Source of the DNA: Myxococcales bacterium
GTDB taxonomy: Bacteria; Myxococcota_A; Polyangia; Haliangiales; Haliangiaceae
DNA length: 64,000 bases
Reading direction: 5' to 3'
Assembly (NCBI GenBank): GCA_016707895.1
Contig: JADJGV010000002.1
Span: 463,695 to 527,694 of the forward strand
The notes beneath the pieces are model-generated. The model worked only from the letters and a program-made list of their open reading frames with translations. It did no database searches and had not been told where the DNA came from. The translations under genes were made by a program, and so were the position numbers. Shown here one piece after another: positions 5,429 to 60,434 of the stretch; positions within the stretch are counted from its first letter, which is position 1, and every line of letters begins with the position of its first letter.

Positions 5429-5447
5429 CGGCGGCGCGCGCGGGCGC

Positions 5448-7231: not shown

Positions 7232-7287
7232 GCGCGGCGATCATCGATCCGCGCGCGGCGGATGTCCATCGACGGCGGCGCGCGCGA

Positions 7288-11267: not shown

Positions 11268-12590
11268 GTGCGCCGCCTGGGTAACGCCGTCCACATCGTG
11301 TGGGTCGGCATCGTCGTCTTCTGGTTCCTCGTCGCCTACGGGCTGGTGCGGCTGGGGCTGCTGATCGGCCTGTGCTGGAGCGGCGCGCGCCGCCGCCGGG
11401 TGGTGGCGCGGTGGAACGGCTGGGCGCTGCGCACGCTGCTGGAGCTGCTCGGCGCGTCGTTCATCAAGATGGGCCAGGTGATGAGCACCCGGCCCGATCT
11501 GTTCGCGGCCGAGACCATCGCGCAGCTCAAGCACCTGCAGGACCGGCTGCCGGCGTTCGCCTTCGCCAAGGTGCGGCGGATCGTCGAGGAGGACACCGGC
11601 AAGCCGCTCGAGGACACCTACGCCGAGTTCGATCAGCAGCCGGTGGCGGCGGCGTCGGTGGCGCAGGTCCACCGCGCCCGCCTGCGCGACGGCCGCGAGG
11701 TCGCGGTCAAGGTGCTGCGGCCCAACGTGCGGCGCCAGGTCGAGCGCGACGCGTCGCTCTTGATGCTGGGGGCCAAGGTCATCGCGCTGCACCCGCGGCT
11801 CAAGCGCAGCGATCCCGTCGGCCACACCAAGCACTTCGTCGACGCGATCCACGACCAGACCGACCTGCGCATCGAGGCCACGAACTACCGCCGCTTCCAC
11901 GACAACTTCGCCAGCTGGACCACGGTGAAGTTCCCCGAGGTGCTGGCGCCGTCGACCGAGCGGATCCTGACGATGGAGTTCATCCGCGGCACCAAGATCG
12001 ACGCCCAGCCCGAGGCGCGCAAGCTGCCGCTGGCCGAGGTGGTGCGGCGGTGCATGTTCCAGATGTGCTTCGACGACGGCTTCCTGCACGCCGACATGCA
12101 CCCCGGCAACATGCTGGTCGACGACGAGGGCCGGCTGGTGCTGTTCGACGTCGGCCTGGCCAAGCACCTGCACGAGGACGTGCTGATCCAGTTCATCGAC
12201 ATGGGCAAGTGCCTGACGATGGGTACGCCCGGCGATCTGGTCGGGCACCTGCGCCGGTTCCACACGTACATGGGCGACGTCGACTGGGACGCGCTGTCCA
12301 AGGACGTCGAGGTGTTCGCGACCAAGTTCCGCGGCCAGAACGCCGCCGAGCTCGACTACGGCACGCTGTTCAACGAGATGTTCGCGATCGGGCGCCGCTA
12401 CCACGTGCGCCCGGTGACCGACATGACGCTGGTGCTGGTGGCGATGGTGACGTCGCAGGGCATCGGCCAGATGCTCGACCCGCACGTCGACGTGTTCGCC
12501 CACGTCGCGCGCCACCTGGTGCCGATCTTGATGAAGCGCAACGAGCGGGTGCCCGAGACCGCCGCGGCGCGCGCCGCCGCGGGGCAGTGA
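11268..12590 (+). CDS. ABC1/UbiB-family atypical protein kinase
   Basis: 440 aa; N-terminal TM helix, ABC1/ADCK signature region (...AAASVAQVHRARLRDGREVAVKVLRPNV...LHADMHPGNMLV...). Confidence 0.85.
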   Translation: MRRLGNAVHIVWVGIVVFWFLVAYGLVRLGLLIGLCWSGARRRRVVARWNGWALRTLLELLGASFIKMGQVMSTRPDLFAAETIAQLKHLQDRLPAFAFAKVRRIVEEDTGKPLEDTYAEFDQQPVAAASVAQVHRARLRDGREVAVKVLRPNVRRQVERDASLLMLGAKVIALHPRLKRSDPVGHTKHFVDAIHDQTDLRIEATNYRRFHDNFASWTTVKFPEVLAPSTERILTMEFIRGTKIDAQPEARKLPLAEVVRRCMFQMCFDDGFLHADMHPGNMLVDDEGRLVLFDVGLAKHLHEDVLIQFIDMGKCLTMGTPGDLVGHLRRFHTYMGDVDWDALSKDVEVFATKFRGQNAAELDYGTLFNEMFAIGRRYHVRPVTDMTLVLVAMVTSQGIGQMLDPHVDVFAHVARHLVPILMKRNERVPETAAARAAAGQ

Positions 12591-12602
12591 TACCGTCGGC
12601 GG

Positions 12603-13217
12603 ATGCAGCCGCCTGGTCCGCCTGGTCCGCCCGCTGGTCCGCCGCCGCCGGGGTATCCGCCGCCGGGGTATCCGCCGCCGGGGTATCCGCCGCCGCCGCC
12701 GGGGTACGGCTATCCGCCGCCGCCGCGCAAGGCTTCCCTGCTGTGGCTCTGGATCCTGCTCGGCGTTCTCGGCGGGCTGATGGTGGTCGGCATCCTGGCC
12801 GCGATCGCGATCCCGTCGTTCATGAAGTACCAGCAGAAGTCGAAGCGTAGCGAGGCCGAGCTCAACCTCAACGCCATCGAGAAGGCGGCGAACATGGTCT
12901 ACGCCGAGACCGCCGCGTTCCCGCCCGGCACGGCGGGGCGGACGCCCGCGACGTCGTGCTGCGCCGACCCGACGCGGCGGTGCCAGCCCGATCCGATCGC
13001 GTGGCAGGGCGAGCCGTGGGCCACGCTCGACTTCGAGATGGTCTCGCCGCACTTCTTCCAGTATACGTACGCCGGCGCCGCCGACGGTCAGAGCTTCACG
13101 GCGACGGCGATCGGGGACCTCGACTGCGACGGCAACGAGGTCGTCTACACGCTGGTCGGGCGCGTCGTCGGGGGCAGCCCGTCGTTCGAGCTGGTGCCGC
13201 CCACCGGCCGGGACTGA
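12603..13217 (+). CDS. Pilin-like bitopic membrane protein with PPGY-rich N-terminal tail (paralog 1 of 3)
   Basis: N-terminus MQPPGPPGPP...GYPPPGYPPPGYPPPPPGYGYPPPPRK, TM LLWLWILLGVLGGLMVVGILAAIAIPSF, which matches the type IV pilin alpha1 core (ILAAIAIPxF) but lacks the G|F(T/S)LIE prepilin-peptidase site. Cys pairs CC..C and DLDCDG. Confidence 0.75.
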   Translation: MQPPGPPGPPAGPPPPGYPPPGYPPPGYPPPPPGYGYPPPPRKASLLWLWILLGVLGGLMVVGILAAIAIPSFMKYQQKSKRSEAELNLNAIEKAANMVYAETAAFPPGTAGRTPATSCCADPTRRCQPDPIAWQGEPWATLDFEMVSPHFFQYTYAGAADGQSFTATAIGDLDCDGNEVVYTLVGRVVGGSPSFELVPPTGRD

Positions 13218-13250
13218 GCCGCGCCGCGGGCGCGATGTTACGCTCGCGCG

Positions 13251-13853
13251 ATGCAGCCACCTCCTCCAGGCGCGCCGCCGGGCGGCTATCCACCGCCGGG
13301 CTATCCACCGCCGGGGTATCCGCCGCCGCCGGGCTACGGCTATCCGCCGCCGCCCCGGAAGCGGTCGCTCTTGTGGCTGTGGATCGTGCTCGGCGTGGTC
13401 GGCGCCGGCCTGGTGATGGTCGCGATCCTGGCGGCGGTCGTGGTGCCCAAGGCCGACGAGTACGTGGAGCGGTCCAAGCGCATCGAGGCCGAGCTCAACC
13501 TCCACGCGATCGGCAGGGGCGCGAAGGTCGGCTACGAGGAGACCGGCCGCTTCCCCGAGGGCGACGCCGCGTTGACGCCGGCCGCCTCGTGCTGCGAGGG
13601 GCCGAACCACAAGTGCGCGCCCGACCCGGCGCTGTGGCGCGGCGAGCCGTGGGAGTCGATGTACTTCGAGATGAACCGGCCGCACTACTTCCGGTACTCG
13701 TACCGCGCGTCGGCCGACGGCCAGAGCTTCACCGCCACCGCCGTGGGCGACCTCGACTGCGACGGCGAGGAGGTGGTGTTCACGGTCACCGGCACCGCCG
13801 TCGGCGGCAATCCGGAGCTGTCGGAGGTCGTGCGGCCGACCAACCGCGACTGA
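13251..13853 (+). CDS. Pilin-like bitopic membrane protein with PPGY-rich N-terminal tail (paralog 2 of 3)
   Basis: 200 aa with the same architecture (PPGYPPPGYPPPGYPPPPGYGYPPPP, LLWLWIVLGVVGAGLVMVAILAAVVVP, ASCCEGPNHKCAPDPALW, DLDCDGEE). Confidence 0.75.
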   Translation: MQPPPPGAPPGGYPPPGYPPPGYPPPPGYGYPPPPRKRSLLWLWIVLGVVGAGLVMVAILAAVVVPKADEYVERSKRIEAELNLHAIGRGAKVGYEETGRFPEGDAALTPAASCCEGPNHKCAPDPALWRGEPWESMYFEMNRPHYFRYSYRASADGQSFTATAVGDLDCDGEEVVFTVTGTAVGGNPELSEVVRPTNRD

Positions 13854-13885
13854 GCCGGCGGCGGGCCGCGTGGTAGCGTTCGCGC

Positions 13886-14464
13886 GTGCAGCCAGGGCCG
13901 CCACCGTCGCCGTCGGGGTATCCGCCACCGGGCTACTACCCGGGGTATCCGCCGCCCGGCGGTCCGCCGCGACGGTCGTCGCTGCTGTGGCTGTGGATCA
14001 CGCTGGGCGTCGTCGGCGCGGTGGCCGTGATCGGCGTGCTGGCCGCGATCGCGATCCCGTCGTTCGTCAACTACCAGCGCAAGGCCAAGGCCGTCGAGGC
14101 CGAGCTCGAGCTGCGGCGGATCGGCCACGCGGCGATCATGTACTTCGACGAGCACGGCCGGTTCCCCGCGGCCGCGGCCGGCCCGACGCCGGCGACGCCG
14201 TGCTGCGCCGGACCTGACCACAAGTGCGCGTCGGTCATCGACGACTGGGCCGCCGAGCCGTGGCGGACCCTCGGCGTCACGATGCTCGAGCCGCACCGCT
14301 ACCAGTACACGTTCACGCCGGGCGCCGATGGCAGCTCGTTCACGGCGACGGCGATCGGCGACCTCGACTGCGACGGCGACGCGTCGGTGTTCACGCTGAC
14401 CGGCACCGCGGTCGGCGGGGCGGCCCGGCTCGACGAGGTGGTCCGGCCCGCGCACATCGACTGA
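13886..14464 (+). CDS. Pilin-like bitopic membrane protein with PPGY-rich N-terminal tail (paralog 3 of 3)
   Basis: 192 aa; GTG start. PSGYPPPGYYPGYPPPGGPP, LLWLWITLGVVGAVAVIGVLAAIAIPSF, ATPCCAGPDHKCASVIDDW, DLDCDGDASV. Confidence 0.75.
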   Translation: MQPGPPPSPSGYPPPGYYPGYPPPGGPPRRSSLLWLWITLGVVGAVAVIGVLAAIAIPSFVNYQRKAKAVEAELELRRIGHAAIMYFDEHGRFPAAAAGPTPATPCCAGPDHKCASVIDDWAAEPWRTLGVTMLEPHRYQYTFTPGADGSSFTATAIGDLDCDGDASVFTLTGTAVGGAARLDEVVRPAHID

Positions 14465-14530
14465 GCGCGACAGGTGCGACCGGCCGCGACGGCTTGACGC
14501 CGACCCGGCCGGGCCGCTAAGCCCGACGGC

Positions 14531-16594
<2,064 letters not shown>

Positions 16595-18457: not shown

Positions 18458-19267
18458 ATGGGTATCCGCGCGGCGTCTGTGGTGGTGATCCTCGGATCGC
18501 TGGCTGGTTGTCCTCACCAGGACGAGGATCCGATCATCGACGCGCCGCTCACCTGCGACCCGGTCGACGACCAGAACCCGTGCACCCTCGACGAGTGCGA
18601 CGGCCCGACGCCGATCCACACGCCGCGCACCGGCGCGAGCTGCACCGGCGGCACCTGCACCGCGCAGGGCACCTGCACCGGCGACACCTGCGGCGACGGC
18701 GACGTCACCGGCGTCGAGCAGTGCGACGATCAGAACACCACGCCGGCCGACGGCTGCAACGCGCAGTGCCGCACCGAGCCGAGCGAGCGCGAGCCCAACG
18801 ACGACGGCACGCCGAACGAAGGCATGGGCTCGGTCGACCCCGGCGGCAACGACTTCGACGCGACCGCGGTCACCAACGCCAACGCGCAGGCCGCGCAGGT
18901 GCCGCTCGACGTCGCCAGCGGCGCGCTGCTGAGCGTGCTGGCCGCGATGAGGCCGCCCGGCGACGAGGACGTGTTCGCGGTGACCAACAGCGGCGCCGCG
19001 CCGCGCGCGGTGAAGTTCGACGTCTGGCTGCGCCTGGCGACGTTCGGCTACGGCCGCTCGTGCGGCATCACGATGGACGCCAGCCTGACCATCCGCGACG
19101 CCGCCGGCGCGATCCTCGCGCAGAACGACGACCGCAACCCGAGCAGCGACCGCTGCCCCGGCCTGACCTACACCGTCGGCGCCGGCCAGACCGTCTACGC
19201 CCAGGTCGTCGAGTACGGCGACAACACGCTCGTGAACTCGTACGCGATCACGTTCGAGCCGATGTAG
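18458..19267 (+). CDS. Secreted lipoprotein with myxobacterial Cys-rich repeat (DUF4215-like) and a pre-peptidase-C-terminal-like domain
   Basis: Lipobox ILGSLAGC; repeat TCGDGDVTGVEQCDDQNTTPADGCNAQC; C-terminal beta-rich domain. Confidence 0.7.
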   Translation: MGIRAASVVVILGSLAGCPHQDEDPIIDAPLTCDPVDDQNPCTLDECDGPTPIHTPRTGASCTGGTCTAQGTCTGDTCGDGDVTGVEQCDDQNTTPADGCNAQCRTEPSEREPNDDGTPNEGMGSVDPGGNDFDATAVTNANAQAAQVPLDVASGALLSVLAAMRPPGDEDVFAVTNSGAAPRAVKFDVWLRLATFGYGRSCGITMDASLTIRDAAGAILAQNDDRNPSSDRCPGLTYTVGAGQTVYAQVVEYGDNTLVNSYAITFEPM

Positions 19268-24053: not shown

Positions 24054-27000
24054 ATGCGGGCTCGCTGGCTGTGTCCTACCGTGGCGCTCTGGGTGGCGGC
24101 GTGCGGTCCGTCCGACGGGCCCAACCGGCCGCCGACGGTGGCCGGCAGCCCGGCGACCACCGCGGAGGACGCGCCGGTGACGATCGCGGTCACCGCCGCC
24201 GATCCCGACGGCGACACGCTCGAGTACCGCTACGCGACGCCGGCCCACGGCACCGTGACCGGCAGCGGCGCGTCGTTCATCTACACGCCCGTGGCCGACT
24301 ACCACGGCACCGACGCGGTGACGGTGACGGTGCTCGACGGCGAGGCCCAGGCGACCGCGACGATCTCGATCACGGTGACGCCGGTGAACGACGCCCCGGC
24401 GGTCGCCCCCGATACGCTGGTCGCGCTCGAGCACACCGCGCTCGACACCCCGCTGACCACGCTGCTGAGCAACGACGTCGACGTCGACGGCGACCCGCTC
24501 GCGGTCACCGCGGTGGCCACCGCCTCGACCGGCACCGCCGTCATCGTCGGCGATCAGGTCCGCTACACGCCGCCGGCGGGCTTCCTGGGCGCCGCGACCT
24601 TCGACTACACGGTGTCGGACGGCCAGGCCACGGGCACCGGCACGGTCACGGTCAACGTCACCGCCGTCGACGATCCCCCGGTCGCCGGCGACGACGCCGC
24701 GACCACCGTCGAGGACACCGCGCTGCCGCTGACCGCCGCGTCGCTCTTGGCCAACGACACCGATCCCGAGGGCGGGGCGCTGTCGCTCACCGCGGTCGGC
24801 AACGCCACCAACGGCACCGTCGCGCTCGCCGGCACGACGGTCACGTTCACGCCGGCCGGCGACTTCAACGGCAGCGCGAGCTTCGAGTACACCGTCTCCG
24901 ACGGCGTCGGCGCCGACACGGCCACCGTGACCGTGACGATCACCGGCGCACCCGACGCCCCGGTCGCCATCGACGACGCGATCACCGCGACCGAGGACCA
25001 GCCGGCGACGCTCATCGCTGCGACGCTGGCGGCCAACGACACCGACGCCGACGGCGACGCGCTGACGGTGACCGCCGTCGGTGCGCCGAGCGGCGGCGCG
25101 GTGGCGCTGGTCGGCGGCACGATCACCTTCACGCCGGCGCCCAACCTCACCGGCACCGCCGGCTTCGACTACACCGTGTCCGACGGCGCCCGCACCGACG
25201 TCGGCCACGTCACGGTCACGGTGGGCGCGGTCCCCGACGCCCCGGTCGCCGGCGACGACACCGCCACGGCCGCCGAGGACACGCCGCTGGCCATCACCGG
25301 CGCGACGCTGACCGCCAACGACGTCGACGTCGACGGCCCGGCGCTGACGGTGACCGCGGTCGCCGGCGCGGTCCACGGCGCCGTGGTGCTGACCGGCGCG
25401 ACGATCACCTTCACGCCCGACGCCGACTACGTCGGCCCCGCCGGCTTCGACTACACGGTCTCGGACGGCGCGCTCAGCGACGTCGGCCACGTCGCGATCA
25501 CCGTGACGCCGGTGAACGATCCGCCGGTGGCGGTCGACGATGTCGCGACCACCGCCGAGGACACCCCGCTGGCCCTGGCCGGGGCGACGCTGGCGGCCAA
25601 CGACACCGACGTCGACGGTCCGGGCCGCACGGTGGTCGCGGTCGCCGCGCCGCAACACGGCACCGTGGCGCTCGCCGGCGGCACCGTGACGTTCACGCCC
25701 GAGGCCAACTACGTCGGCCCGGCGGCGTTCGACTACACCGTGTCCGACGGCAGCTTGGTCGACGTCGGCACCGTCGCCGTCACGGTCACGCCGGTCAACG
25801 ACGCGCCGGTGGCGGTCGCCGGTAGCGCCACGACCAACGAGGCGACGCCGGTGGTGATCACGCTGACCGCCACCGACCTCGACTCACCGAGCGTCACGTT
25901 CACGCCGGCGGCGCCGTCGGTGGGCGCGCTCGGCGCGGTCACGCCGGCGGGGCCGTTCAGCGCCACGGTCACCTTCACGCCGCCGCTCGGCTTCGACGGC
26001 ACCGCGACGTTCGCCTTCACCGCGTCGGATGGCGCGCTGACGTCGGCGCCAGCGACGATGGCGATCACCGTCGTCAACGTGCCGGTGTGCAACGACGGCC
26101 TGGTCGAGGGCAGCGAGGGCTGCGACGATCAGGGCAACGCCGCCGGCGACGGCTGCTCGCCGACGTGCGCGGTCGAGGTCGGCTGGACCTGCGCCGGCGC
26201 CCCCAGCGCGTGCGACGAGATCTGCGGCGACGGCATGATGGTCGGCGCCGAGGCCTGCGACGACAACAACCTGATCAGCACCGACGGCTGCACCGCGCAG
26301 TGCGTGCTCGCGCCGCCGTGCGACGGCGCCCGCTTCCCGGGCGGCGACCGCTTCGCCACCAACCCGACCACCGGCGCGTGCTACGTCGGCTTCGACGACG
26401 ACCTCGACAGCCAGGCCGCCGCGCAGGCCGCTTGCGTGGCGGGCGCCGGCCACCTGGCGACGATCACCAGCGCCTTCGAGCAGGGCCTGGTGACTGCGGC
26501 CGCCAGCGACGCCCAGAATCCGTGGATCGGCGCCACCGACGACGCCAACGACACCGACGCGGTCTTCGCGTGGGTGACCGGCGAGCCGTGGGGCTTCGCC
26601 AACTTCGCGCCGGGCCAGCCCGACGACGACGTCGGGGTCGGCGGCAACGGCGAGTGCCTGCACCTGCTCAACGCCGCCGGCCAATGGAACGACACCAACT
26701 GCGCCGCCACCGGCTTCGTGGTCGGCCGGGTGTGCGAGTACGAGCCGCGCTGCGGCGACGGGGTGATCCAGCCGGCGCAGAGCGAGACCTGCGACGACGG
26801 CAACAGCGTCAGCTTCGACGGGTGCTCGGCCACCTGCCGGGTCGAGACGCTGTTCTTCAGCGAGTACGTCGAGGGCTCCGGCGGCACCAACAAGGCGGTC
26901 GAGATCGCCAACCCGTCGCTGACCCCCCGCAACCTGACCGGTTGCTCGCTGCGGCTGTACACCAACGGCTCGCCGACCCCGAGCAACACCGTCGCGCTCA

Positions 27001-27353
27001 CCCAGACGATCGCCGGCGGCGACGTGCTGGTGGTGTGCAACCCGTCGTCGGTCGCCGCGATCCTGGGCCAGTGTGACCTGCAGAGCAACGCGGTGGCCAA
27101 CTGGAACGGCGACGACGCGATCGAGCTGTTCTGCGGTAGCGCCAGCGTCGACGTGGTCGGGCGAGCTCCGGCGTCGATCCGGGCGCGCTGGGGCACCGCG
27201 CCGACCTCGACGCTCGATCAGACGCTGCGTCGCAAGTGCTCGGTGAGCGTCGGCGACGCCAACGGCACCAACGCGTTCAACCCGGCGACGGAGTGGACCA
27301 GCCTCGGCACCAACGTGTTCACCGACCTCGGCGTCCGCTCGTGCAGCCCCTAA
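24054..27353 (+). CDS. Large surface lipoprotein: about seven tandem 95-aa cadherin-like/Ig-like repeats, Cys-rich repeats, C-type lectin domain, C-terminal lamin-tail domain (LTD)
   Basis: 1099 aa; lipobox ALWVAACG. Repeat consensus ...ATTxEDTPLxxxxAxLLANDTDxDGDxLTVTAV...GTVAL.GGTVTFTP...FDYTVSDG...VTVTVTPVNDAPVA. CTLD signature (WIGATD...WVTGEPW...GECLHL...WNDTNC). LTD-like C-terminus (ETLFFSEYVEGSGGTNKAVEIANPS...). Confidence 0.85.
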   Translation: MRARWLCPTVALWVAACGPSDGPNRPPTVAGSPATTAEDAPVTIAVTAADPDGDTLEYRYATPAHGTVTGSGASFIYTPVADYHGTDAVTVTVLDGEAQATATISITVTPVNDAPAVAPDTLVALEHTALDTPLTTLLSNDVDVDGDPLAVTAVATASTGTAVIVGDQVRYTPPAGFLGAATFDYTVSDGQATGTGTVTVNVTAVDDPPVAGDDAATTVEDTALPLTAASLLANDTDPEGGALSLTAVGNATNGTVALAGTTVTFTPAGDFNGSASFEYTVSDGVGADTATVTVTITGAPDAPVAIDDAITATEDQPATLIAATLAANDTDADGDALTVTAVGAPSGGAVALVGGTITFTPAPNLTGTAGFDYTVSDGARTDVGHVTVTVGAVPDAPVAGDDTATAAEDTPLAITGATLTANDVDVDGPALTVTAVAGAVHGAVVLTGATITFTPDADYVGPAGFDYTVSDGALSDVGHVAITVTPVNDPPVAVDDVATTAEDTPLALAGATLAANDTDVDGPGRTVVAVAAPQHGTVALAGGTVTFTPEANYVGPAAFDYTVSDGSLVDVGTVAVTVTPVNDAPVAVAGSATTNEATPVVITLTATDLDSPSVTFTPAAPSVGALGAVTPAGPFSATVTFTPPLGFDGTATFAFTASDGALTSAPATMAITVVNVPVCNDGLVEGSEGCDDQGNAAGDGCSPTCAVEVGWTCAGAPSACDEICGDGMMVGAEACDDNNLISTDGCTAQCVLAPPCDGARFPGGDRFATNPTTGACYVGFDDDLDSQAAAQAACVAGAGHLATITSAFEQGLVTAAASDAQNPWIGATDDANDTDAVFAWVTGEPWGFANFAPGQPDDDVGVGGNGECLHLLNAAGQWNDTNCAATGFVVGRVCEYEPRCGDGVIQPAQSETCDDGNSVSFDGCSATCRVETLFFSEYVEGSGGTNKAVEIANPSLTPRNLTGCSLRLYTNGSPTPSNTVALTQTIAGGDVLVVCNPSSVAAILGQCDLQSNAVANWNGDDAIELFCGSASVDVVGRAPASIRARWGTAPTSTLDQTLRRKCSVSVGDANGTNAFNPATEWTSLGTNVFTDLGVRSCSP
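24130..26010 (+). repeat. Tandem coding repeats of about 285 nt (95-aa domain), about seven units, inside the adhesin gene
   Basis: Periodic protein repeats visible in the translation; generate long shadow ORFs on both strands. Confidence 0.8.
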
Positions 27354-27369
27354 CCCGTCGGGCCTCGCG

Positions 27370-28316: not shown

Positions 28317-29494
28317 GTGACGGTATCATGCCGGTGGCGGCGTCGAGCGTCGATAGACGGCGGCACGCGGCGCGGGGTCCCGGGAGTCCCGGGCCTGGTG
28401 GGGGCGGGCGCGACCAGCGCCCAGTCGGCGTCCCCGACGCTGCCGGTGTGGCCGGGGCACGTCGAAGGTGGGCCCGTGCAGGTCGACGCGCTGGACGTCG
28501 ACGCCGACCTGCTGCGCTCGGCGCTCGCGCCAGCGGGCGCCAGCTACGTGACGGCGCCGTCCGGGAAGGCGATCACCGGCCGGGTCCAGGTCGCGAAGCG
28601 CGCCGACGCCATGGCCGCGCTGGTCGCGCACGAGCCGTCGCTGGCGATCACGCCGCGGCCGATGCGCGGCGGCGGTCCCACGGTCGACCTCGACTTCCAC
28701 GCGGCGTCGACGCGCGATGTGTACCAGATGCTGGCCGACGTCCTGCGCACCAACATCGTGGTGGTGGTGCCGCGACCGACCTGACGCCGGGCAGCGCAAG
28801 CGGCTGCGGCGTGCCGCCGAGGTCGCGCGCGCCACGGGCGGCGACGACAACCAGCCCGCGGGTGGGGTGGGGGCGAGCGCCCCGCCGCGGCCGGCCACCG
28901 GCGAGCGGCTCGCCGCGCGAGACGTGGGCGGCAGTGGCGAGCCGCCGCGCGCTCGCGGCCCGCTCGCCGGCCGACGCTGCGCGACGCGTCGGTGATGTGC
29001 GGCGCCGGCCGCCGGTCGTGCTGAGCGAACGAGGTCGCCACCAAACGGCGCTCGCCACGCGCATGACCGGCGGCGTCGGGGCGCGGGCGCGCGCGCGCGC
29101 GGGGGGGGGGGGGGGGCCGCTGGCGCGTCGACGCCGGACGGGTGCGGGCCCCGCGCGCGCGGTCGCACGCGGCCCGCGGCGGCGGCCGGCCGCGCGTACT
29201 GCCGCCGGCGGCGCGGGGAGGCGGCGACGGCTGGACGCACGCGGCCCAGCGAGGGCGGCAGGCGGATCGAGGGACGGACGGCAGGCGCGGGCGTGGCCGG
29301 GGCGTCGGGCGCCGGTGCGCCGCGGCGACGGCCGACGGCGCGCGCGCCTGACGCACGACGGGGTTCCGGGTCTGGACCCAGGGGCGGCCGGTGGTCACCG
29401 ATGACGGCGAGCGGCTCGACGTCATCGTCGCGCCCGGCGAGGTCCAGGTCCGCGGCGGCACGACGCTGCGGCTGGCGCCGCGCGCTCCGTAGCG
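28317..29494 (+). pseudogene. Disrupted gene: STN (secretin/TonB N-terminal)-like fragment followed by low-complexity (CG)n/G16 sequence and a short terminal ORF fragment
   Basis: ORF 28317..28784 encodes ...TVDLDFHAASTRDVYQMLADVLRTNIVVVVP (STN-like) then stops. 28790-29380 has no codon periodicity, (cg)n and a G16 run at about 29101-29116. Frame +2 ends ...VTDDGERLDVIVAPGEVQVRGGTTLRLAPRAP* at 29494. Confidence 0.4.
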
Positions 29495-29515
29495 CCGCGC
29501 GCGGGCAGCCCCGCC

Positions 29516-30418
29516 TCAGCCCGGGTAGCGGACGATCGCGCGCAGCTCGCTCGGGGCCGGCAGGTCGGCGTCGCGGAAGGCGCGGGCCATCGCGACCGGG
29601 CTGCCGTAGCCGACGCGGTCGGCGACCTCGGCAACCGACGCGTCGGGCGCGCTCAGCAGGAGCAGCGCGGCGCGCAGCCGCAGGATGCGGGTGATCTGCC
29701 GGAAGTCGCCGCCGAACAGATCGAACTCCTTGGCCATCGCCTTCAGCTCGCGCCGCACCTGCCGGCTCGAGCGGCCGCTGGTCGCGGCCACCTGATCGAT
29801 CGTGATCGCGGTGGCGTAGGCGTCGTAGGCCGGCGTGATGGCCTGCCACAGCCGGGTCAGCGCCGGCGGCTCGTCGAGCGTCAGCGTGGGCGGCGCGGCC
29901 AGCACGCCGTCGGCGACCAGCCCGGCCAGCGCGGCCTGCACCGGCGGCAGCGGCGCCACGCCCGCCGCGGGGGTGCCGGCCAGCGCGATCAGCGCGTCGA
30001 CGGCGGCCCAGGTCGTCGGGGCCAGCGGCCGCGGCCCGGCCGCGAGGCCGATCGGCCCCTTCACCAGCGCGCGCGCCAGCCGCAGCTCGACCGCGACCGA
30101 GCGCTCGCCCCAGCTGCGGAACCAGTGCGCGCCGCGGGTCGGGCGCTCGAGCTCGGTCTCGGCCATCACCCACAGGCCGCGCGTGGCGACGGTGACCTCG
30201 CCGGTCGTGAGCATGCCCGCCGCGAGCGCGTAGACCGTCACCACGTCGCGCACCACCGGGCTCGGCGGCGCGAACCGCGAGTCGAACAACAGCCGCCGCT
30301 TGTCCATGACGTGCATGCGCACGGTGCGGTCGAAGAACAGCGCCGAGCGGACCTGGGCGCCGGCGAAGTCGGTCTGGCTGGCGGCGAACAGCATCGACGA
30401 CGGCGAGGGTCGTAGCAC
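29516..30418 (-). CDS. AraC-family transcriptional regulator
   Basis: C-terminal AraC HTH pair (ITIDQVAATSGRSSRQVRRELKAMAKEF ... VAEVADRVGYGSPVAMARAFRDA); start may be an internal Met. Confidence 0.75.
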   Translation of the reverse strand: MLRPSPSSMLFAASQTDFAGAQVRSALFFDRTVRMHVMDKRRLLFDSRFAPPSPVVRDVVTVYALAAGMLTTGEVTVATRGLWVMAETELERPTRGAHWFRSWGERSVAVELRLARALVKGPIGLAAGPRPLAPTTWAAVDALIALAGTPAAGVAPLPPVQAALAGLVADGVLAAPPTLTLDEPPALTRLWQAITPAYDAYATAITIDQVAATSGRSSRQVRRELKAMAKEFDLFGGDFRQITRILRLRAALLLLSAPDASVAEVADRVGYGSPVAMARAFRDADLPAPSELRAIVRYPG

Positions 30419-30456
30419 GCGGGGCCGCGCCCGAGCGCGCGTGCTACGGTCGACGC

Positions 30457-31091
30457 ATGGCGAAGCTGCGCGTGTCCTACAACGCCCCGGTGGTGCTCAC
30501 CTTCGCGCTGGCGGCGGTGATCGTGCAGCTGTTGCCCGACCGCACCCAGGCCTACTTCGTCGCGCACCCCACGCTCGACGGCTGGCGCGCGTACCCGGGA
30601 CGTTCACGCACATCCTCGGCCACGCGGGCTGGGATCACCTGCTGGCCAACTTCTCGATCATCCTGATCATCGGCCCGATCCTCGAGGAGCGGCACGGCTC
30701 GGCGTCGCTGCTGGCGATGATCGCCGTGACGGCGCTGATCACCGGCTTGGTCAACGCGGCGTTCTTCAACCAGTACCTGGTGGCGCCAGCGGCATCGCGT
30801 CTGGCGATGGTCATCCTGGGCTCGGTGGCCAACATCAAGGGCCGGCGAGATCCCGCTGACCTTCATCGCGGTGGCCGCGCTGTTCGCGGGCCGCGAGGTC
30901 GTCGCCGCGTTCAAGGACGATCAGGTCCGCAGGGCGCGCACCTGATCGGCGGCACGGTCGGCGGTGCGTTTGGATTCTCGGCGCTGGCCCAAGCGCTGCG
31001 CGGCGGCACCTGCGCTGCGACGCCGGCGCCGGCGCCGCGGCCGGTGGGCGCGTCCGGGCGGCAAGCCGCCGGCGTGACGCCGCGATCGTAG
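30457..31091 (+). pseudogene. Rhomboid-family intramembrane serine protease, multiply frameshifted
   Basis: MAKLRVSYNAPVVLTFALAAVIV... (30457 frame), then GHAGWDHLLANFSIILIIGPILEERHG (rhomboid HxxxN motif) in the 30300 frame; the GGASG Ser motif and C-terminal TM lie in other frames (at least 3 indels). Confidence 0.55.
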
Positions 31092-31105
31092 TAAGGTGCG
31101 CGCCC

Positions 31106-32122
31106 ATGAAGCGCACCATCGGACTCGCACTCGCGTTGACCGCCGCCGTCGCCGGCGGCTGCAAGAAGAAGGACAAGGACGCCGGCGCTGGCGCTGGCAC
31201 CGCGGCCGGCACCGCCGCGGGCACCGGCTCCGCCGCGGGCACTGGCACGGGCACCGGCGCGGGCACCGGCACCGCCGCGCCGGCGATCGACGCTGCGGCC
31301 GCCCCGGCGACGCTGCCCCACTACATGGACGGCCTGGCCACGCCGGAGTCGGTGCTGTACGACGCCGCCAACGATCGCTACCTGGTGTCGAACATCAACG
31401 GCACGCCGTTCGCGGCCGACGACAACGGCTTCATCTCCGAGCTGAGCCCCGACGGCCAGACCAAGAAGCTGAAGTTCATCGACGGCGCCGCCGCCGACGT
31501 GACGCTGAACGCGCCCAAGGGCATGGCGATCGTCGGCGGCACGCTGTACGTCGCCGACATCAGCGTGGTGCGGCAGTTCGACCTGGCGACCGGCGCCGCC
31601 AAGGGCGAGATCAAGGTCGACGGCGCGGCGTTCCTCAACGACGTCGCGGCGACCGCCGACGGCGGCGTGGTCGTGACCGACACCTCGGTCGACGAGAAGT
31701 TCGCGTCGCTCGGCAACGACGCGATCTACAAGATCGGCGCCGACGGCAAGGTCAGCACGGTCATCAAGGACAAGGCGCTGGGCGGCCCCAACGGCGTCTC
31801 GGTCGCCGCCGACGGCACGCTGTGGGTGGTGAGCTTCAGCTCGGGCGAGATCGCCGCGGTCGACGCCAAGGGCGTCAAGCAGCCGGGGCAGAAGCTGCCC
31901 AAGGGCCAGCTCGACGGCATCGAGGCGCTGGCCGGCGGCGACTACCTGGTGTCGAGCTGGGAGGGCGGCGCGGTCTACCGCGGCAAGCCCGGCGGCGAGT
32001 GGAAGCCGGTGGCCGAGAACCTGAAGGCGCCGGCCGACATCGGCGTCGACAGCAAGCGCGGCTGGCTGCTGATCCCGCTGTTCACCGAGAACATGGTGCA
32101 CTCGGCCGCGATCGCGCCGTGA
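31106..32122 (+). CDS. SMP-30/gluconolactonase/LRE-like beta-propeller lipoprotein
   Basis: Lipobox LTAAVAGGC, Gly/Ala/Thr-rich linker, repeated blade-like segments (...LYVADISVVRQFD..., ...GTLWVVSFSSGEIAAVD...). Confidence 0.7.
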   Translation: MKRTIGLALALTAAVAGGCKKKDKDAGAGAGTAAGTAAGTGSAAGTGTGTGAGTGTAAPAIDAAAAPATLPHYMDGLATPESVLYDAANDRYLVSNINGTPFAADDNGFISELSPDGQTKKLKFIDGAAADVTLNAPKGMAIVGGTLYVADISVVRQFDLATGAAKGEIKVDGAAFLNDVAATADGGVVVTDTSVDEKFASLGNDAIYKIGADGKVSTVIKDKALGGPNGVSVAADGTLWVVSFSSGEIAAVDAKGVKQPGQKLPKGQLDGIEALAGGDYLVSSWEGGAVYRGKPGGEWKPVAENLKAPADIGVDSKRGWLLIPLFTENMVHSAAIAP

Positions 32123-32133
32123 GCGCGGCCTGA

Positions 32134-33567
32134 TCAGCCGTCGTCGGACGCGGGCGGCGTGGCCGTGACGATGCGGTTGCGCCCGCTGCGCTTGGCCGCG
32201 TAGAGCCGCTCGTCGGCGCGGGCCAGCAGCGTCGCCGGGTCGCCGCCGTCGTCGGGGAACTGGGCGACCCCGCACGAGTACGTGTAGCGCGGCAGCTCGG
32301 GCGTCCCTGGGCGCTCGGCCAGCTTGGCCCGCAGCCCGTCCAGCACGCCGGCGGCCTGCTCGGCGGTGGCGCGGCGCATGACGACGACGAACTCCTCGCC
32401 GCCGTAGCGGCCGACCAGGTCGTTGCCGCGCAGGCGCTCGGCCAGCACCTTGGCGATGTCGCGCAGCACGGCGTCGCCGACCAGGTGGCCGTGCTGGTCG
32501 TTGACCTGCTTGAAGTAGTCGACGTCGAGCAGCGCCACCGCGACGCGCTCGCCCGCCGCCGCGCCGTAGGCCAGCGCCGCCGCCAGCTGCTCGAGCGCGA
32601 ACCGCCGGTTGAAGATGCCGGTCAGCCCGTCGCGGATCGCCAGGTCGCGCAGGTGGGCCTCGCTGGCGCGCAGCGCCGCCTCGGCCCGCCGCTGCAGCGT
32701 CACGTCGCGGAAGCTCCACACCCGACCGACGATGTCGCCGCGCAGCCGCTGCGGGCGGCCGGTGCGCTCGAACACCCGGCCGTCGAGCAGCTGGATCACG
32801 TCGACGGTGTCGGCGTCGGGCGTGGCCAGGATGTCGGTGGCGCCGGCCAGGAACCGGTCGAGCTGGTTGGTCCGCTGCGCCATGTGGACCTGCATCAGGT
32901 CGACGTCGCGCGGCGGCGTCTCCAGGCCCCACATCTCGAGGAAGCGGCGGTTGAACGCCACCACCTTCTGGCCGTCGATCGCGACGATGCCCTCGCCGGT
33001 CGACTCGAGCGTCGCGGCCAGCAGCGCCTCGCGCCGCGCCCGCTGCGCCAGCTCGAGCGCCAGCGAGGTCAGGCTGGCGAGGAACGCCGCGTCGCGCTGC
33101 TCGGAGGTGGTCCACGCGCGCGCGCCGCCGACGTGCTCGTTGCACACCACGCCGACCAGCGCGCCGCCGGTGCGCAGCGGCGCGTCGAGCAGCGCGCCGA
33201 TCGTCAGCGGCGTCAGGTAGCCGGCCGAGAACTCGCTGGTGCGCGGATCGGCGTGAGCGTCGATCGCCGCGATCGGCTCCTCGCTGGTCAGCGCCGCGAA
33301 GTAGCGCGGGTAGTCGGTGGCGGCCAGCACGACGCCGCTGGCGTGGACGCCGCGGTCGCGCTCGTACAGGTCGGCGCAGCGCAGGCTCTGGCGATCGTCG
33401 CTCAGCAGCCCACGCTGCAGCGGGCCACGCCGATGGCGGTGCACCCGGTCTCGGTGATCGCGCGGATCGCGCCGTCGGGATCCCCCTCGTAGCGGCGCCA
33501 GACCCGCGCCAGCTCCGACAGCGCGTCGGCCGACGTCGGCGGCGTGGGCTCGGCGTGATCGGGCGGG
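32134..33567 (-). pseudogene. GAF-PAS-GGDEF diguanylate cyclase with an N-terminal frameshift
   Basis: ORF 32134..33444 has a GAF fragment, PAS and GGDEF (RYGGEEF). The first 40 aa of the GAF domain (VRLSPPDHAEP...AIRAITETGCTAIGVAR) are in the +1 frame just upstream and terminate at TGA; single-nt indel near 33440 (ggg run). Confidence 0.6.
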
Positions 33568-33609
33568 GACAACCTCACCAGTGTAGCCGAAGACGCGCCG
33601 GGCCGGCGC

Positions 33610-34340
33610 TCAGCGGGGCAGCCGGTTGATGCGGACGGTCCGGCTGCGCGGCTCGATCTCCGACGGCCAGCGCACCGGCGGCAGCGGCGTCGCCGGCCGG
33701 GCCAAGAGGTAGCCCTGCCCGTAGCGGGCGCCGGCGGCGATGACCGACTCCAGCTCGGTCTCGGTCTCGATGCCCTCGGCCACCACCTTCGCGCCGAGGT
33801 CGGTGCACAGCTGGATCACGCTGGCCACCAGCTTGAACATGCGCGAGCCCAGGCTCAGGCCGGCCACCAGTGCACGCCGCGGCCGCGCACCTCGTTGAGC
33901 ATGTTCTGGCACTGCGCGAAGTGCGACAGCGGCACGTCCTCGGTGATCTCCAGGTAGACGTCCTCGCAGTGCTGGAAGATCGGGTCGTCGGGCTGGACCA
34001 GCCAGCCCTCGTTGAGCTCGGCCGGGTTGAGGTTCAGGAACAGCGGCGTGTCGGGGCAGCCGTCGACCGCCAGCTTGCGCAGCTTGCGCCCGAGCTGGCC
34101 CGTGACGCCGTGCTTGGTGGCCGCGGCGAACAGGCTGATCGGCCCATCGAACTCGGGCGCGGTGGTGCGGGCCAGCGCCTCGTAGGCGAAGGCGCGCCGG
34201 GTGCGCAGGTCGACCACCGGCTGGTAGACGACGAACAGCTCGTCGGAGGTGAGCACGCGGTGGATCGGCTCGCGGTACGGCTCGCGCGGCGGTGGACTCC
34301 GGGTCTCGCGCAGCGGAGGGCTCTTGGTCGGGCGCGCCAC
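33610..34340 (-). pseudogene. EAL-domain c-di-GMP phosphodiesterase, frameshifted
   Basis: N-terminal part in ORF 33855..34340 (ELFVVYQPVVDLRTRRAFAYEALAR = EAL signature); C-terminal part (...ASVIQLCTDLGAKVVAEGIETETELESVIAAGARYGQGYLLARP) in the frame of ORF 33610..35352; shift near 33860-33880. Confidence 0.6.
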
Positions 34341-34379
34341 GTCTCCCAGCGTAACAGACCGCGCGGCGCGGCTCGCGGC

Positions 34380-35788
34380 TTACTCGCCGTTGTCGATCAT
34401 GCCGGCGCACACCGACAGCGTCGCCGGCTGGGTGTCGACGACCGACACCGGCGTGCCGGTGAGCCACGCGGTGATCGCGCCCCGCCACGTGAGCGGCTGC
34501 CCGCCGGGCGGCGTCACCGTCGTGATCTGGAAGTAGTCCTTGCTGGTGAGCGCGACGTGCTGGTTGCAGTTCGGCGCGTAGATCCCGGGCTGCGTGGTGA
34601 TCGCGGCGCGCTCCTCGGCGGTGCTCTGGATGCCGGGCAGCGCCAGCGCGGTGGCGCGGTACCAGGTGGCCAGGGTCGGCATCGGCACGCCGAGGTCGGT
34701 GTAGTTGCCGCCGATCACCGGGTCGCGCAGGTCCTGGCGCGCGATGAACGGGGTCGTGATGTGGTTCATGACGACGTGGGTGTTGTCGCCGCACATCCAC
34801 TGGTCGGCCGGGGCGTGCATGGCCAGGCACGACTGGTCCGTGTACATGCCCCAGTTGGCGGTCTGGACCACCGGCCAGCCCATGGTCTGGGCCTGGCCGT
34901 CGATCTGCGCGGCGATCGCAGGGTCGATGTCGCTCGAGCGCGGCGGCAGGTTGGCGTCGAACACGCCGCGCACCTGGGTGCCGTTGGGCGCCAGCCGCCC
35001 GGCGACGTAGTCGAGGTTGTACTCGGCGCCGGCGCCGCCGGCCGACGTGCCGCTCCACACCACCAGGCTGGCGGCGGTCAGCCGCGGCAGCGTCACCGCG
35101 CCGTCGTCGGAGGTGACCGGGCCGGCCAGCAGCTGATCCAGCGCCGCCTGCACGATCGTGTGGCCGCGGAAGTGGATGCGGTAGCGCTGGGTGGGGTCGT
35201 TCGGGTTCTCGAGGATCGTGTCGCTCTTGGTGCCGCTCCAGCTGTCCGAGCTGCAGTAGTACATGAGCACGCCGTTGGCCTCGCCGAACGGGTTGATCCC
35301 GTCGCGGTCGAACAGCCCCTGGTTGTCGGTGTTGGCCACCATCGGCGTCCACCGCGTGCTCATCTTGGCCTTGTGTACTTCTGGGCGCCGCAGTAGCGGA
35401 TCGCGCAGCTCCCGGCGGTGCCGCAGCCGCCGCCGCCCTGCTGGTAGAACCCAGCGACCGGCGTTGGTGCCGCCGGTCGAGGCGCGATGTAGATCACCGC
35501 GCGGGTGCCGTCGTTGCACACCGCGTCGGGGTTGGTCAGCGTGACCTTGCGCAGGTCGTCGCCGGCGCCGACGCCGGACGCCGGCGTGTACGCGCCGCAT
35601 TGGGCCGCGAGGACCTCATCGATCATCGGCACCAGGTTGCCGGCGTCAGGCGCGGCGTCGATGGCGGGGGCCGCGTCCGCCGCGGCGTCGGGCGCGCCGG
35701 GCGGGGCGTCCGTGGTCGGGTGCTCGTCGACCGAGCCGCAGGCAGCGGCGAACAGCAGCAGCGCGACCACGCGTGGAGCGATAGGCAT
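34380..35788 (-). pseudogene. Pectin acetylesterase/NOTUM-family (PAE) secreted esterase, frameshifted
   Basis: N-terminal 140 aa with lipoprotein signal ([17 protein letters not shown]...AVCNDGTRAVIYI...FYQQGGGGC) in ORF 35360..35806; remainder (YYCSSDSWSG, SGTSAGGAGA) in ORF 34380..35600; shift near 35365-35385. Confidence 0.6.
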
Positions 35789-35896
35789 GCGTGCCCGTCG
35801 TTGCACGCCACAGGCCGCCGCAACCTCTCGAAACGACGGTCCCGGCGGGACCTCGCGGTCCCGCTGTCGCCGCTGCTCCGGATCCGGAGATACCGC

Positions 35897-38191
35897 TCAG
35901 GCGTTCAGCGCCAGCTGGGTCGCCCGCGCCAGGTTGCGCTCGAGCTGGAGCTTGCCGGCGTCGTACTGCACCGGCCACGGCACGTCGGTGACGCCCTGCT
36001 CGGCCGCGGCGTGCAGCGTCCAGTACGGATCGGCCAGGTGCGGCCGCGCCAGCGCGCACAGATCGGCGCGGCCAGCGGCGATGATCGTGTTGACGTGGTC
36101 GGCCTCGAAGATGTTGCCGACGGCGATGGTGGGCACGTGCAGCGCGTTGCGGATCTGATCCGACAGCGGGACCTGGAACATCCGGCCGTAGACCGGGCGC
36201 TCGTGCTTGACCACCTGCCCTGACGACACGTGGACGATGTCGACGCCGGCGGCCTGGAACCGGCGGGCGATCTCGACCGCCTCGTCGCCGGTGTTGCCGT
36301 CGGGTGCCCAGTCGTGGGCGCTGAGCCGCACCGACATCAGGCGCTCGGTCGGCCACGCCGCGCGCATCGCCGCGAACACCTCGAGCGGGAACTTGCAGCG
36401 GGCGTCGATGCTGCCGCCGTAGCGCGTCGGCGCGCCGGTTGGTCAGCGGCGACAGGAACGACGACAGCAGGTAGCCGTGGGCGCAGTGCAGCTCGAGCAG
36501 ATCGAACCCGCAGCGCGCGGCGCGCTTGGTCGCGGCGACGTGGGCGGCCAGCACCGCGTCCATGTCGGCGCGGGTCATCGTGCGGGGCACCTGCGACGTC
36601 CCCGGCAGGTACGGCAGCGGCGACGGCGCGATCAGCTCCCAGCCGCCGGCGGGCAGCGGCTGATCGGCGCCCTCCCACGCCAGCTTGGGTGGCGCCCTTG
36701 CGGCCGGCGTGGCCAAGCTGCAAGGCGATCTTGGTCGATCCGGCGCGGTGGACGAAGCCGACGACGCGCTTCCACGCGGCTTCCTGGACGTCGTTCCACA
36801 GGCCGGTGCAGCCCGGCGTGATGCGCGCCTCGGGCCCGACGCACGTCATCTCGGTGAACATCAGGCCGGCGCCGCCGCCGGCGCGCGCTGCCGTAGTGCA
36901 CGAGGTGGAAGTCGTCGGGCGTGCCGTCCTGGGCCGAGTACATGCACATCGGCGACACCGCGACCCGGTTGGGGATCGTCAGGTGCCGCAGCCGGAACGG
37001 CGTGAACATCGGCGGCACCGCGCGGTCGGGCACGCCGCTCTGGGCGGCGATCGCGCGATCGACGCCGGCGATGTAGGCCGGGTCGCGCAGCCGCTGGTTG
37101 GCGTGGCCGACCCGCTGGCTGCCGGTGAGCAGCGAGAACACGAACTGCTGCGGCGGCAGGTCGACGTAGCGGTCGACGTGCTCGAACCAGGTCATCCGGT
37201 TGCGCGCCGCGCTCTGCAGCTTGAGCGCCTCGACCTCGCGCTCGGCCTGGTAGCGGGCCAGCCGGGTCGGGACGTCGCCGTCGGTCGACTGCAGCACCGC
37301 GGCCAGCGCGATCGCGTCCTCCATGGCCAGCTTGGTGCCCGAGCCGATCGAGAAGTGCGCGGTGTGGGCGGCGTCGCCGAGCAGGACGATGTTGTCCTTG
37401 TACCAGCGCTCGCACAGCACGCGGTTGAAGCGCAGCCACACCGCCGAGCCGCGCAGGTGGCGGGCGTTGGAGATCAGGCGGTGACCGTCGAGCAGGTCGG
37501 CGAACAGCTCCTCGCACAGCGCGATCGACTGGTCGGCGGTCATCGCGTGCAGGCCGGCGGCGCGCCAGACGTGCTCGGGGGTCTCGACGATGAACGTCGA
37601 CATCTCGTCGTCGAACCGGTACGCGTGCAGGTTGAACCAGCCGTGCGCGGTCTGGCGGAACGCGAACGTGAACGCGTCGAGCTTCTTCTTGGTGCCGAGC
37701 CAGATGAACCGGCAGTCGCCGACCTGGATCCGCGGGTTGAAGTGCGCCTCGTGCTTCTTGCGGGTCACCGAGTGCACGCCGTCGGCGCCGATCACCAGGT
37801 CGTACTGCTTGGCGTAGACGTCGGGGTCGGTGAACTCGGTCTCGTACTGGATCGTCACCCCCAGCGCGCGGGCGCGGCCCTGGAGGATCTGCAGCAGCTT
37901 CATCCGGGCGATGCCGCAGAAGCCGTGGCCGCTCGACGTGATCTTCTCGCCCTTGAAGTAGGTGTCGATGTCGTCCCAGTGGCGGAACGCGCCCTCGATC
38001 TGCTCGACCACCTCGGGCGCCTGGGCCCGGAAGCCGTCCATGGTCTTGTCAGAGAACACCACGCCCCAGCCGAAGGTGTCCTCGGCCTTGTTGCGCTCGT
38101 AGACGGTGACCTCGTGGCGGGGGTCCGCCTGCTTCATCAGGATCGCGAAGAACAGGCCGGCGGGGCCGCCGCCGAGACAGAGGATGCGCAT
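35897..38191 (-). pseudogene. Salicylyl-CoA 5-hydroxylase / 2-aminobenzoyl-CoA monooxygenase-reductase-like bifunctional flavoprotein (FAD monooxygenase plus Old-Yellow-Enzyme domain); OYE half split over three frames
   Basis: Begins at M391 of ORF 36632..39361 (MRILCLGGGPAGLFFAILMK..., GDAAH). OYE N-terminus (MFTPFRLRHLTIPNRVAVSPMCMYS) in that frame, continues in ORF 36337..36861 ([22 protein letters not shown]...) and ORF 35897..36379 (OYE C-terminus): at least 2 frameshifts. Confidence 0.6.
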
Positions 38192-39325
<1,134 letters not shown>

Positions 39326-39495: not shown

Positions 39496-40287
39496 ATGCG
39501 AACCGCGTTGCTGTCGCTGGTGCTGATCGGGTGTGGTGGCGCGCCGGCGCCGACCGCCAGCCCCGCGTCCCCCGCGCCGGCCACGATCGCGGCGCCGGCC
39601 CCGCTTCGGCTCACGGCGGTGCCGCGCGCGGTCGGCGATCGCTTCGACGAGACGTCGTACGACCACTACGACGTGATGGTCGACGGCGTGCACATCGTCG
39701 AGCTGGAGGAGTTCCGATGCAGCCGCGAGGTGCGGGCGGTGGCTGACGGCGCGGTGACCGAGCAGGTCACGCGGTACCACCAGTTCCACGTCGAGCAGCG
39801 CCGCGACGGCCGGCTGGCGATCGGGCCCGACCTGGCTGGCCACACCTACCGGGTCGCGGTCGACGGCGCCGAGCTCGCGATCACCCGCGACGACGGCGCC
39901 GCGCTCGACCCCGCGGAGCGTGAGGCGGTCGCCCGCGACCACAACGACCTCGGGAGCCCGATGGCGTCGTCGGCGCTCGTCGGGACCGCCTGGGTGCCCG
40001 GGGTCGAGGTCGGGCTCGACCCCGCGGCGCAGCTGCGGTTCTTCGGCGAGGAGGCCAGCGGCACGGCGACGATGACGTTGATGGCGGCCACCGCCGACAC
40101 GGTCACCTTCGCCGGCGGCAACCACCGCACCTTCGGCGACGGCGTCGAGGTGACCGCGACCGGCACGTTCGTCTACGACCGCGCCACGCTCCGGCTGCGC
40201 CACCGCGAGGGCACCGCCACGCTCGCTGGCGCCTGGGTCGGCCGCTCCGAGCGCCGCACCGACATCACCGACGTCGCGGCGCGCTGA
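39496..40287 (+). CDS. Hypothetical lipoprotein
   Basis: M55 of ORF 39334..40287: MRTALLSLVLIGCGG lipobox. Confidence 0.6.
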   Translation: MRTALLSLVLIGCGGAPAPTASPASPAPATIAAPAPLRLTAVPRAVGDRFDETSYDHYDVMVDGVHIVELEEFRCSREVRAVADGAVTEQVTRYHQFHVEQRRDGRLAIGPDLAGHTYRVAVDGAELAITRDDGAALDPAEREAVARDHNDLGSPMASSALVGTAWVPGVEVGLDPAAQLRFFGEEASGTATMTLMAATADTVTFAGGNHRTFGDGVEVTATGTFVYDRATLRLRHREGTATLAGAWVGRSERRTDITDVAAR

Positions 40288-60410: not shown

Positions 60411-60434
60411 GCGACTTGACGATCGTCAAGTCGC
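60411..60434. promoter_or_regulatory. Perfect 24-bp palindrome GCGACTTGACGATCGTCAAGTCGC in the divergent ftsW / histidine-kinase intergenic region
   Basis: Exact reverse-complement symmetry; candidate dimeric-regulator operator (or bidirectional hairpin). Confidence 0.5.

Follow-up and report, generated by a model that had tools for sequence, protein, structure and literature searches.

The window analysed here is a stretch of 64,000 bp (64 kb) from the assembly GCA_016707895.1 of a Myxococcales bacterium (contig JADJGV010000002.1, positions 463,695–527,694 of the forward strand). It contains a tract of about 10 kb in which seven neighbouring genes are broken: a secreted-protein gene, a rhomboid protease gene, a GAF-PAS-GGDEF diguanylate cyclase gene, an EAL phosphodiesterase gene, a pectin-acetylesterase-family (PAE) esterase gene, a bifunctional hydroxylase gene (FAD_binding_3 + OYE) and a tryptophan 2,3-dioxygenase-family (TDO) gene. 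Judging from sequence comparison, localized error in the consensus or assembly is very probably the cause of this tract. None of the other assemblies compared carries the lesions, and six of the genes are restored once 17 insertion or deletion (indel) events are undone.

Private indels in a collinear tract

Coding frames were read from the periodicity of G+C content at the third codon position (GC3; 93–100% in genuine genes), using a seven-state Viterbi segmentation on position-specific G+C content and stop-to-stop translations. Indels were polarised by blastn with low gap costs against near-identical contigs and the outgroup L006, and an event was regarded as private when all comparators covering the site, including this 94% identical outgroup, agreed against the window. 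The near-identical contigs L001–L005 were retrieved as exact matches to the intact lipoprotein (SGL/SMP-30-like) encoded at 31106–32122, and all come from different samples: L001 is a 73-kb contig of a metagenome-assembled genome (MAG; CAXWNE010000018.1, GCA_964269055.1), L002, L003 and L005 are Logan assemblies of three sequencing runs, and L004 is from GCA_020050275.1. Besides, a JGI metagenome contig that spans 30914–36845 (L093) was obtained by a pattern scan. These six contigs were 98–99% identical to the window. A scan of the GTDB species representatives provided L006, a MEGAHIT 'Myxococcales bacterium' MAG with about 94% DNA identity, as well as the two Kofleriaceae MAGs L007 and L008 (76–86% identity). 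L006 alone spans every lesion site. The flanks were compared to L086–L091 over 41.9–62.9 kb and to the JGI contig L092 over 3.9–22.2 kb; L092 was the single match to the protein encoded at 12603–13217. One comparator record in ENA carries the label wastewater metagenome.

The intact state was found at every covered site of the 17 events in all seven independently assembled contigs (L001–L005, L093 and L006), and in L001 all genes of the tract were called intact, with products of 207 aa (rhomboid), 481 aa (GAF-PAS-GGDEF), 257 aa (EAL) and 470 aa (PAE). The 17 edits alone gave uninterrupted open reading frames (ORFs) for the rhomboid, GGDEF, EAL, PAE, FAD/OYE and TDO proteins. When compared by tblastn, the six corrected proteins showed 97.6–100% identity to those of L001 over their full length, without gaps or further stops, except for the last 21 residues of EAL, where a 1-bp deletion (window 33704) is private to L001 and L002 sides with the window; the uncorrected window gave each protein in two to four pieces in different frames. 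Comparison with orthologous loci and correction of single indels had both been proposed as checks in an initial annotation of this DNA, made without database searches.

Independently of the alignments, the GC3 segmentation placed same-strand frame switches away from stop codons at approximately 30595, 30839 and 30920 in the rhomboid gene (plus strand), at 33409, 33869 and 35374 in the GAF-PAS-GGDEF, EAL and PAE genes, respectively (minus strand), and at 36420, 36685 and 36865 in the OYE half of the hydroxylase gene (minus strand). It also detected a region of 750 bp (28770–29524) with more than 80% G+C and no discernible reading frame. These phase changes, together with the gaps relative to the near-identical contigs, bear out the disruption of all six genes named in the initial annotation and the clean state of the flanks; the number of broken genes, however, is seven, as the TDO gene is also affected.

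The seven broken genes lie within 28.8–38.3 kb, and six of them carry the 17 polarised private indels. All 17 fall inside 30596–38244, which represents 13% of the compared sequence (P ~8e-16 if events were uniformly distributed), so the initial claim that the clustering exceeds chance was right. In about 46 kb of flanking window that was compared, no window-private frameshifting indel was found. Relative to L092 (3.9–22.2 kb), the window differs by 56 substitutions and a single in-frame gap of 6 bp, and the comparisons to L086 and L087 (41.9–62.9 kb) showed 108 and 29 substitutions with four and two gaps, respectively. None of these gaps was common to L086 and L087 where both cover, and the gaps at 60414 and 62718–62720 lie outside L087 and could not be polarised. 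No gaps were seen relative to L001 in 21.1–26.9 kb. A suspected frameshift outside the tract (5197–5456), raised by the GC3 segmentation, was rejected: the near-identical L092 aligns across it without a gap and has a plus-strand gene of 92 aa called at this place, and the strand had been mis-assigned by the simple segmentation model. The 6-bp in-frame indel (GACCTC) relative to L092 is located at window 9255; it is the sole gap in 18 kb and exemplifies natural indel variation.

Natural bacterial variation and pseudogenes are dominated by substitutions. Within 30.0–38.3 kb, 17 private indel events were found versus approximately 8–10 private substitution events, several of which are located directly beside indels (30803–5, 30886–7, 30990–2 and 36878–9). 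If the lesions were real, one strain would recently have lost contiguous genes for cyclic di-GMP turnover, a rhomboid, an esterase and aromatic oxidation by a burst of indels combined with relaxed selection, possibly through error-prone repair synthesis over a tract of about 10 kb. The tight clustering and the involvement of seven neighbouring genes would agree with such a loss, and so would the variation of this neighbourhood in the population, where the secreted-protein gene is missing from L002, L007 and L008. Yet the ratio of indels to substitutions is about 2:1 (with more than 60 indels if the patch around a G16 run in the secreted-protein gene is included), compared to substitution-to-gap ratios of 108:4 and 56:1 (about 27:1 and 56:1) in the flanks, and substitutions are not raised in the tract, with a pairwise divergence of 0.34–0.44% versus 0.27–0.5% in the flanks. 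Fewer indels would suffice for inactivation than the eight within 450 bp of the approximately 620-bp rhomboid gene and the three in a 465-bp segment of another gene, genes with 100% protein identity to L001 lie intact between the broken ones (AraC and SGL), and none of the lesions is shared by any other assembly compared. We therefore regard real gene loss in one strain as unlikely; that a genuine, localized, indel-dominated burst in one wastewater strain knocked out the cyclase, the EAL protein, the rhomboid, the esterase and the TDO/hydroxylase pair together has, in our view, only a slim chance of being correct.

The G+C content is approximately 73% throughout the window and 72–74% in the tract, the same as in the flanks, except for 28–30 kb. 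The tract was collinear with L006 and with the family-level relatives L007 and L008. A decaying island under relaxed selection, one of the causes offered in the initial annotation, is not supported, on account of this synteny, the flank-like G+C content and divergence, the lack of in-frame stops after correction and the absence of the lesions from other assemblies.

Equivalent garbage was detected in L001 at other positions, where the window is clean-framed or agrees with L006. Relative to the window, this damage comprises frame wobble with garbage translation in 26918–27360 (the C-terminus of an adhesin), poly-G and poly-C runs in 28341–28490 and 28824–28950, 1-bp deletions at 28533 and 28589, and a patch at 39561–39788. 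Since L001 is similarly damaged elsewhere, patchy indel garbage is a property of these assemblies and not of one lineage, which also argues against real lesions. In its own coordinates, the garbage patches of L001 are located at 5900–6400, 7250–7800 and 18500–18750, and they break the adhesin C-terminus and a 317-aa gene.

Ends of the short-read contigs L003, L004, L005 and L093 were found in or near the patches, at 29515, 30493, 30847, 30914, 33966 and 36845. Six of ten contig ends were within about 150 bp of a patch, compared to approximately 3.4 expected, which is suggestive but not significant and may mean that several data sets are difficult to assemble at these places. The same tendency suggests trouble in the assembly graph, and would agree with a collapse of co-existing strains, in a metagenome graph or in a consensus of long reads, that leaves indels where the strains differ; the errors would then stem from micro-diversity instead of low read quality. 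Several strains do occur across the samples (98–99.7% identity among contigs), and a presence/absence polymorphism adjoins the tract. However, the comparators are nearly monomorphic among themselves at the patches and contig ends are enriched only weakly, so such a strain chimaera is very improbable; it would in any case be a sub-type of artefact and not a biological rival.

Broken genes and their neighbours

The rhomboid protease gene (30457–31077, plus strand; 207 aa when intact) carries eight window-private indels, at 30596 (−1), 30782 (−1), 30801 (+1), 30839 (+1), 30928 (−1), 30977 (−1), 30990 (−2) and 31046 (+1). Bases are scrambled at 30803–5, 30886–7 and 30990–2. Small scrambles among the lesions include TTCATG to TCTGGCG and CTGGGC to CCAA. 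The GAF-PAS-GGDEF diguanylate cyclase gene (32134–33578, minus strand; 481 aa when intact) has a 1-bp deletion at 33411. The gene for a stand-alone EAL phosphodiesterase (33610–34340, minus strand; about 257 aa when intact) lacks 88 bp between 33870 and 33871; this deletion is not flanked by a direct repeat, and a search of JGI metagenome contigs did not recover its junction. The PAE secreted esterase gene (34380–35788, minus strand; 470 aa when intact) is disrupted at 35373 (−1), 35449 (−2) and 35486 (−1). In the window fragments, the Pfam models were matched only over positions 7–72 of 143 (Rhomboid), 56–133 of 133 (GAF), 6–148 of 236 (EAL) and 91–244 of 355 (PAE), whereas they were spanned end to end in the intact comparator versions.

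Two genes between the broken ones are intact: an AraC-family regulator gene (HTH_18; 29519–30394, minus strand; 292 aa), whose product is 100% identical to that of L001, and the gene for the SGL/SMP-30-like lipoprotein (31106–32122, plus strand; 338 aa), which is also 100% identical to L001 and of which the same protein is present on five other contigs.

The salicylyl-CoA 5-hydroxylase/oxidoreductase-type bifunctional gene (35897–38191, minus strand; 763 aa when intact) has 1-bp insertions at 36422, 36687 and 36886. The L001 orthologue matched NCBIfam NF006101 with 1260.8 bits (cut-off 1078) over positions 1–763 of 768, and the copy in the window matches full length only once the three insertions are removed. 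Next to it, the TDO gene (38208–39325, minus strand; 371 aa when intact) contains a 2-bp TC insertion at 38243–38244, which shifts the last approximately 11 codons and removes the stop, so that the ORF continues into the hydroxylase gene. In L001, TDO (371 aa) and the FAD_binding_3 + Oxidored_FMN protein (763 aa) were called separately, and L006 is also without the TC insertion. On this comparison, the predicted TDO-hydroxylase fusion is a product of the indel and not a genuine fusion. Look-ups with the fusion product, and with the adhesin of the window, gave no match.

With respect to individual genes, the initial annotation was correct about the single indel in the GGDEF gene and about the OYE half, for which at least two indels had been claimed and three 1-base insertions were found. 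It had recognized multiple indels in the rhomboid gene but understated their number (at least three, compared to the eight present), and the PAE gene, rightly called broken, holds three indels and not one. The EAL gene does carry a single lesion, although this is the 88-bp deletion and not a small indel. As to the interspersed genes described as intact, this was confirmed for AraC and SMP-30, but the 'TDO plus FAD domain' gene is the artefact of the 2-bp insertion.

Among relatives of the hydroxylase (loci L009–L031 and L045–L050), the best ones beyond Kofleriaceae were found in betaproteobacterial MAGs (70–75% amino acid identity), while those of other Myxococcota (Polyangiaceae, Labilithrix) showed only 47–51% identity. 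Because the betaproteobacterial relatives are closer than those of other Myxococcota, the sequences suggest that the salicylyl-CoA-5-hydroxylase-type gene adjoining TDO may have been acquired by horizontal transfer.

In the surroundings of the tract, an adhesin-like lipoprotein of 1099 aa is encoded at window 24054–27353; Pfam matches on the L001 orthologue identify Cadherin-like and Big_9 repeats. At the DNA level, the internal repeats share about 73% identity, and the gene is intact in the window and C-terminally frameshifted in L001. On the other side, between window 39445 and 39467, L006 contains about 3 kb of extra DNA (12554–15615 of its reverse complement).

The secreted-protein gene and the G16 run

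The remnant of the secreted-protein gene was delimited to 28317–29492 (plus strand; exact start uncertain) by tblastn of the L006 protein, MAFFT alignment and translation, and it was compared by a three-way MAFFT alignment of the window, L001 and L006. Approximately 140 codons at the N-terminus and 45 at the C-terminus can still be read, with scrambled sequence between them; only L006 has the gene intact (412 aa). The initial annotation had labelled it an STN fragment, a name that finds no backing, as neither the window fragment nor the intact 412-aa orthologue of L006 matched a Pfam family at E<=1.

The scrambled part of the gene spans approximately 590 bp. Two patches in it are private to the window: a small one at 28773–28815 with several 1–2 bp deletions, where L001 agrees with L006, and the main one at 28950–29365, which shows 42 deletion and 6 insertion events relative to L001. 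Within the main patch, 56% of the bases lost in deletion events are A or T and 16 of the 19 bases added in insertion events are G, and the G+C content is 84.9% in the window, compared to 77.5% in L001 and 78.4% in L006 for the same segment. The patch holds a (CG)7 repeat at 29087–29100, immediately followed by a G16 run at 29101–29116, precisely where the initial annotation had placed it. G16 is the sole homopolymer of at least 8 bases in the 64 kb, while about 0.02 such runs would be expected by chance. Its site is spanned only by L001 and L006, both of which read GCGCGC-TGCCGCC without a G tract.

A run so far beyond chance expectation might be taken as a contingency tract, with slipped-strand mispairing at G16 and at shorter runs switching the genes on and off, and some of the other indels do coincide with GG or GGG runs or with dinucleotide repeats, (TC)n and (AC)n. 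However, the relatives are without a G tract at the position of G16, the run sits in the middle of a scrambled patch of 400 bp, away from promoters and from the 5′ ends of coding sequences, about half of the indels are outside any repeat or homopolymer, and the runs involved elsewhere are only 2–3 bases long. No length variation was seen among the assemblies covering a site (for the G16 site, L001 and L006 only). Phase-variable homopolymers, another cause put forward in the initial annotation, can hence be dismissed almost entirely.

The entire secreted-protein gene (window 28334–29514, about 1.18 kb with approximately 78–80% G+C) is missing from L002, in which the flanks are joined with six unrelated bases (L002 900–945). 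L007 and L008 lack it as well, whereas it occurs in L001, L006 and the window, a pattern that resembles a presence/absence polymorphism adjoining the error tract.

Source of the lesions and comparison with known systems

The tract would be an ordinary, vertically inherited stretch whose genes are intact in the organism, probably a wastewater Kofleriaceae-like myxobacterium to judge from its closest relatives L006–L008. Here, 1–2-base indels, small scrambles, an 88-bp drop-out and a spurious G16 would have broken the reading frames in seven short patches at about 28.8–38.3 kb. The sequence contexts resemble miscalls: about half of the indels lie away from homopolymers, bases are scrambled locally, the borders of the 88-bp deletion carry no repeats, and the patch with G16 is biased towards deletions and poor in A and T. 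Such patches may have arisen where read support was poor or very sparse, as when accurate stretches from short reads are linked by unpolished long reads or by gap filling, and the alternation of perfect and bad sequence over about one long-read length would fit a region that was bridged, gap-filled or thinly covered. Frameshifting indels that remain in (meta)genomes assembled from long reads or by hybrid methods, and in regions that short reads cannot polish, are well documented (10.1101/2021.08.23.457338, PMC9262707, PMC8812927).

Some points weigh against consensus or assembly error. The errors are deduced from comparison of contigs, true strain-specific mutations would likewise be private to one assembly, and the confinement of the patches to about 10 kb of 64 kb requires the extra assumption of a thin or bridged region. 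Unusually high G+C content is found only at the 28.8–29.4 kb patch; high G+C was rejected as a general cause, and of the initial suggestion of local assembly or consensus error in an extreme-GC stretch, the error is favoured while the extreme G+C fits this patch alone. Methylation motifs were also rejected as a cause: CATG and CCTCGG each occur twice in the rhomboid patch, but no motif was common to the other sites, and such errors would not be local.

The tract is of use mainly as a warning: annotation of this contig would yield seven pseudogenes, a spurious fusion of TDO and hydroxylase and a 'phase-variable' G16, although the organism probably has none of them. The comparison also provides a recipe for distinguishing consensus error from gene decay without reads, in which indels are polarised with near-identical contigs plus an outgroup, and the ratio of private indels to substitutions is compared between tract and flanks. 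Real lesions would document an unusual localized burst of indels in a natural population.

Clusters of pseudogenes are a feature of genomes undergoing reductive evolution, and contingency loci vary in phase through slipped-strand mispairing in poly-G or poly-C tracts. The tract resembles the former in that neighbouring accessory genes are frameshifted, but substitutions are not in excess, nonsense mutations are absent, its lesions occur in a single assembly, intact genes are interleaved and one short gene carries redundant indels. With poly-G/poly-C contingency loci it shares a long G homopolymer within a coding region, which here, however, is missing in relatives, embedded in a scramble and not positioned as a switch. 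The broken-gene tract is most probably not a biological feature. Known errors of long-read and hybrid assemblies show the same split of conserved ORFs by 1–2-base indels, partly in short homopolymers, and the same absence from short-read assemblies of the same organism. Guided correction restores genes in both cases, which is the use described for proovframe (10.1101/2021.08.23.457338), and regions that escape polishing are described as keeping their errors (PMC8812927, PMC9262707). Unlike such errors, those found here are concentrated in patches within about 10 kb instead of contig-wide, and they extend to a drop-out of 88 bp and a spurious G16.

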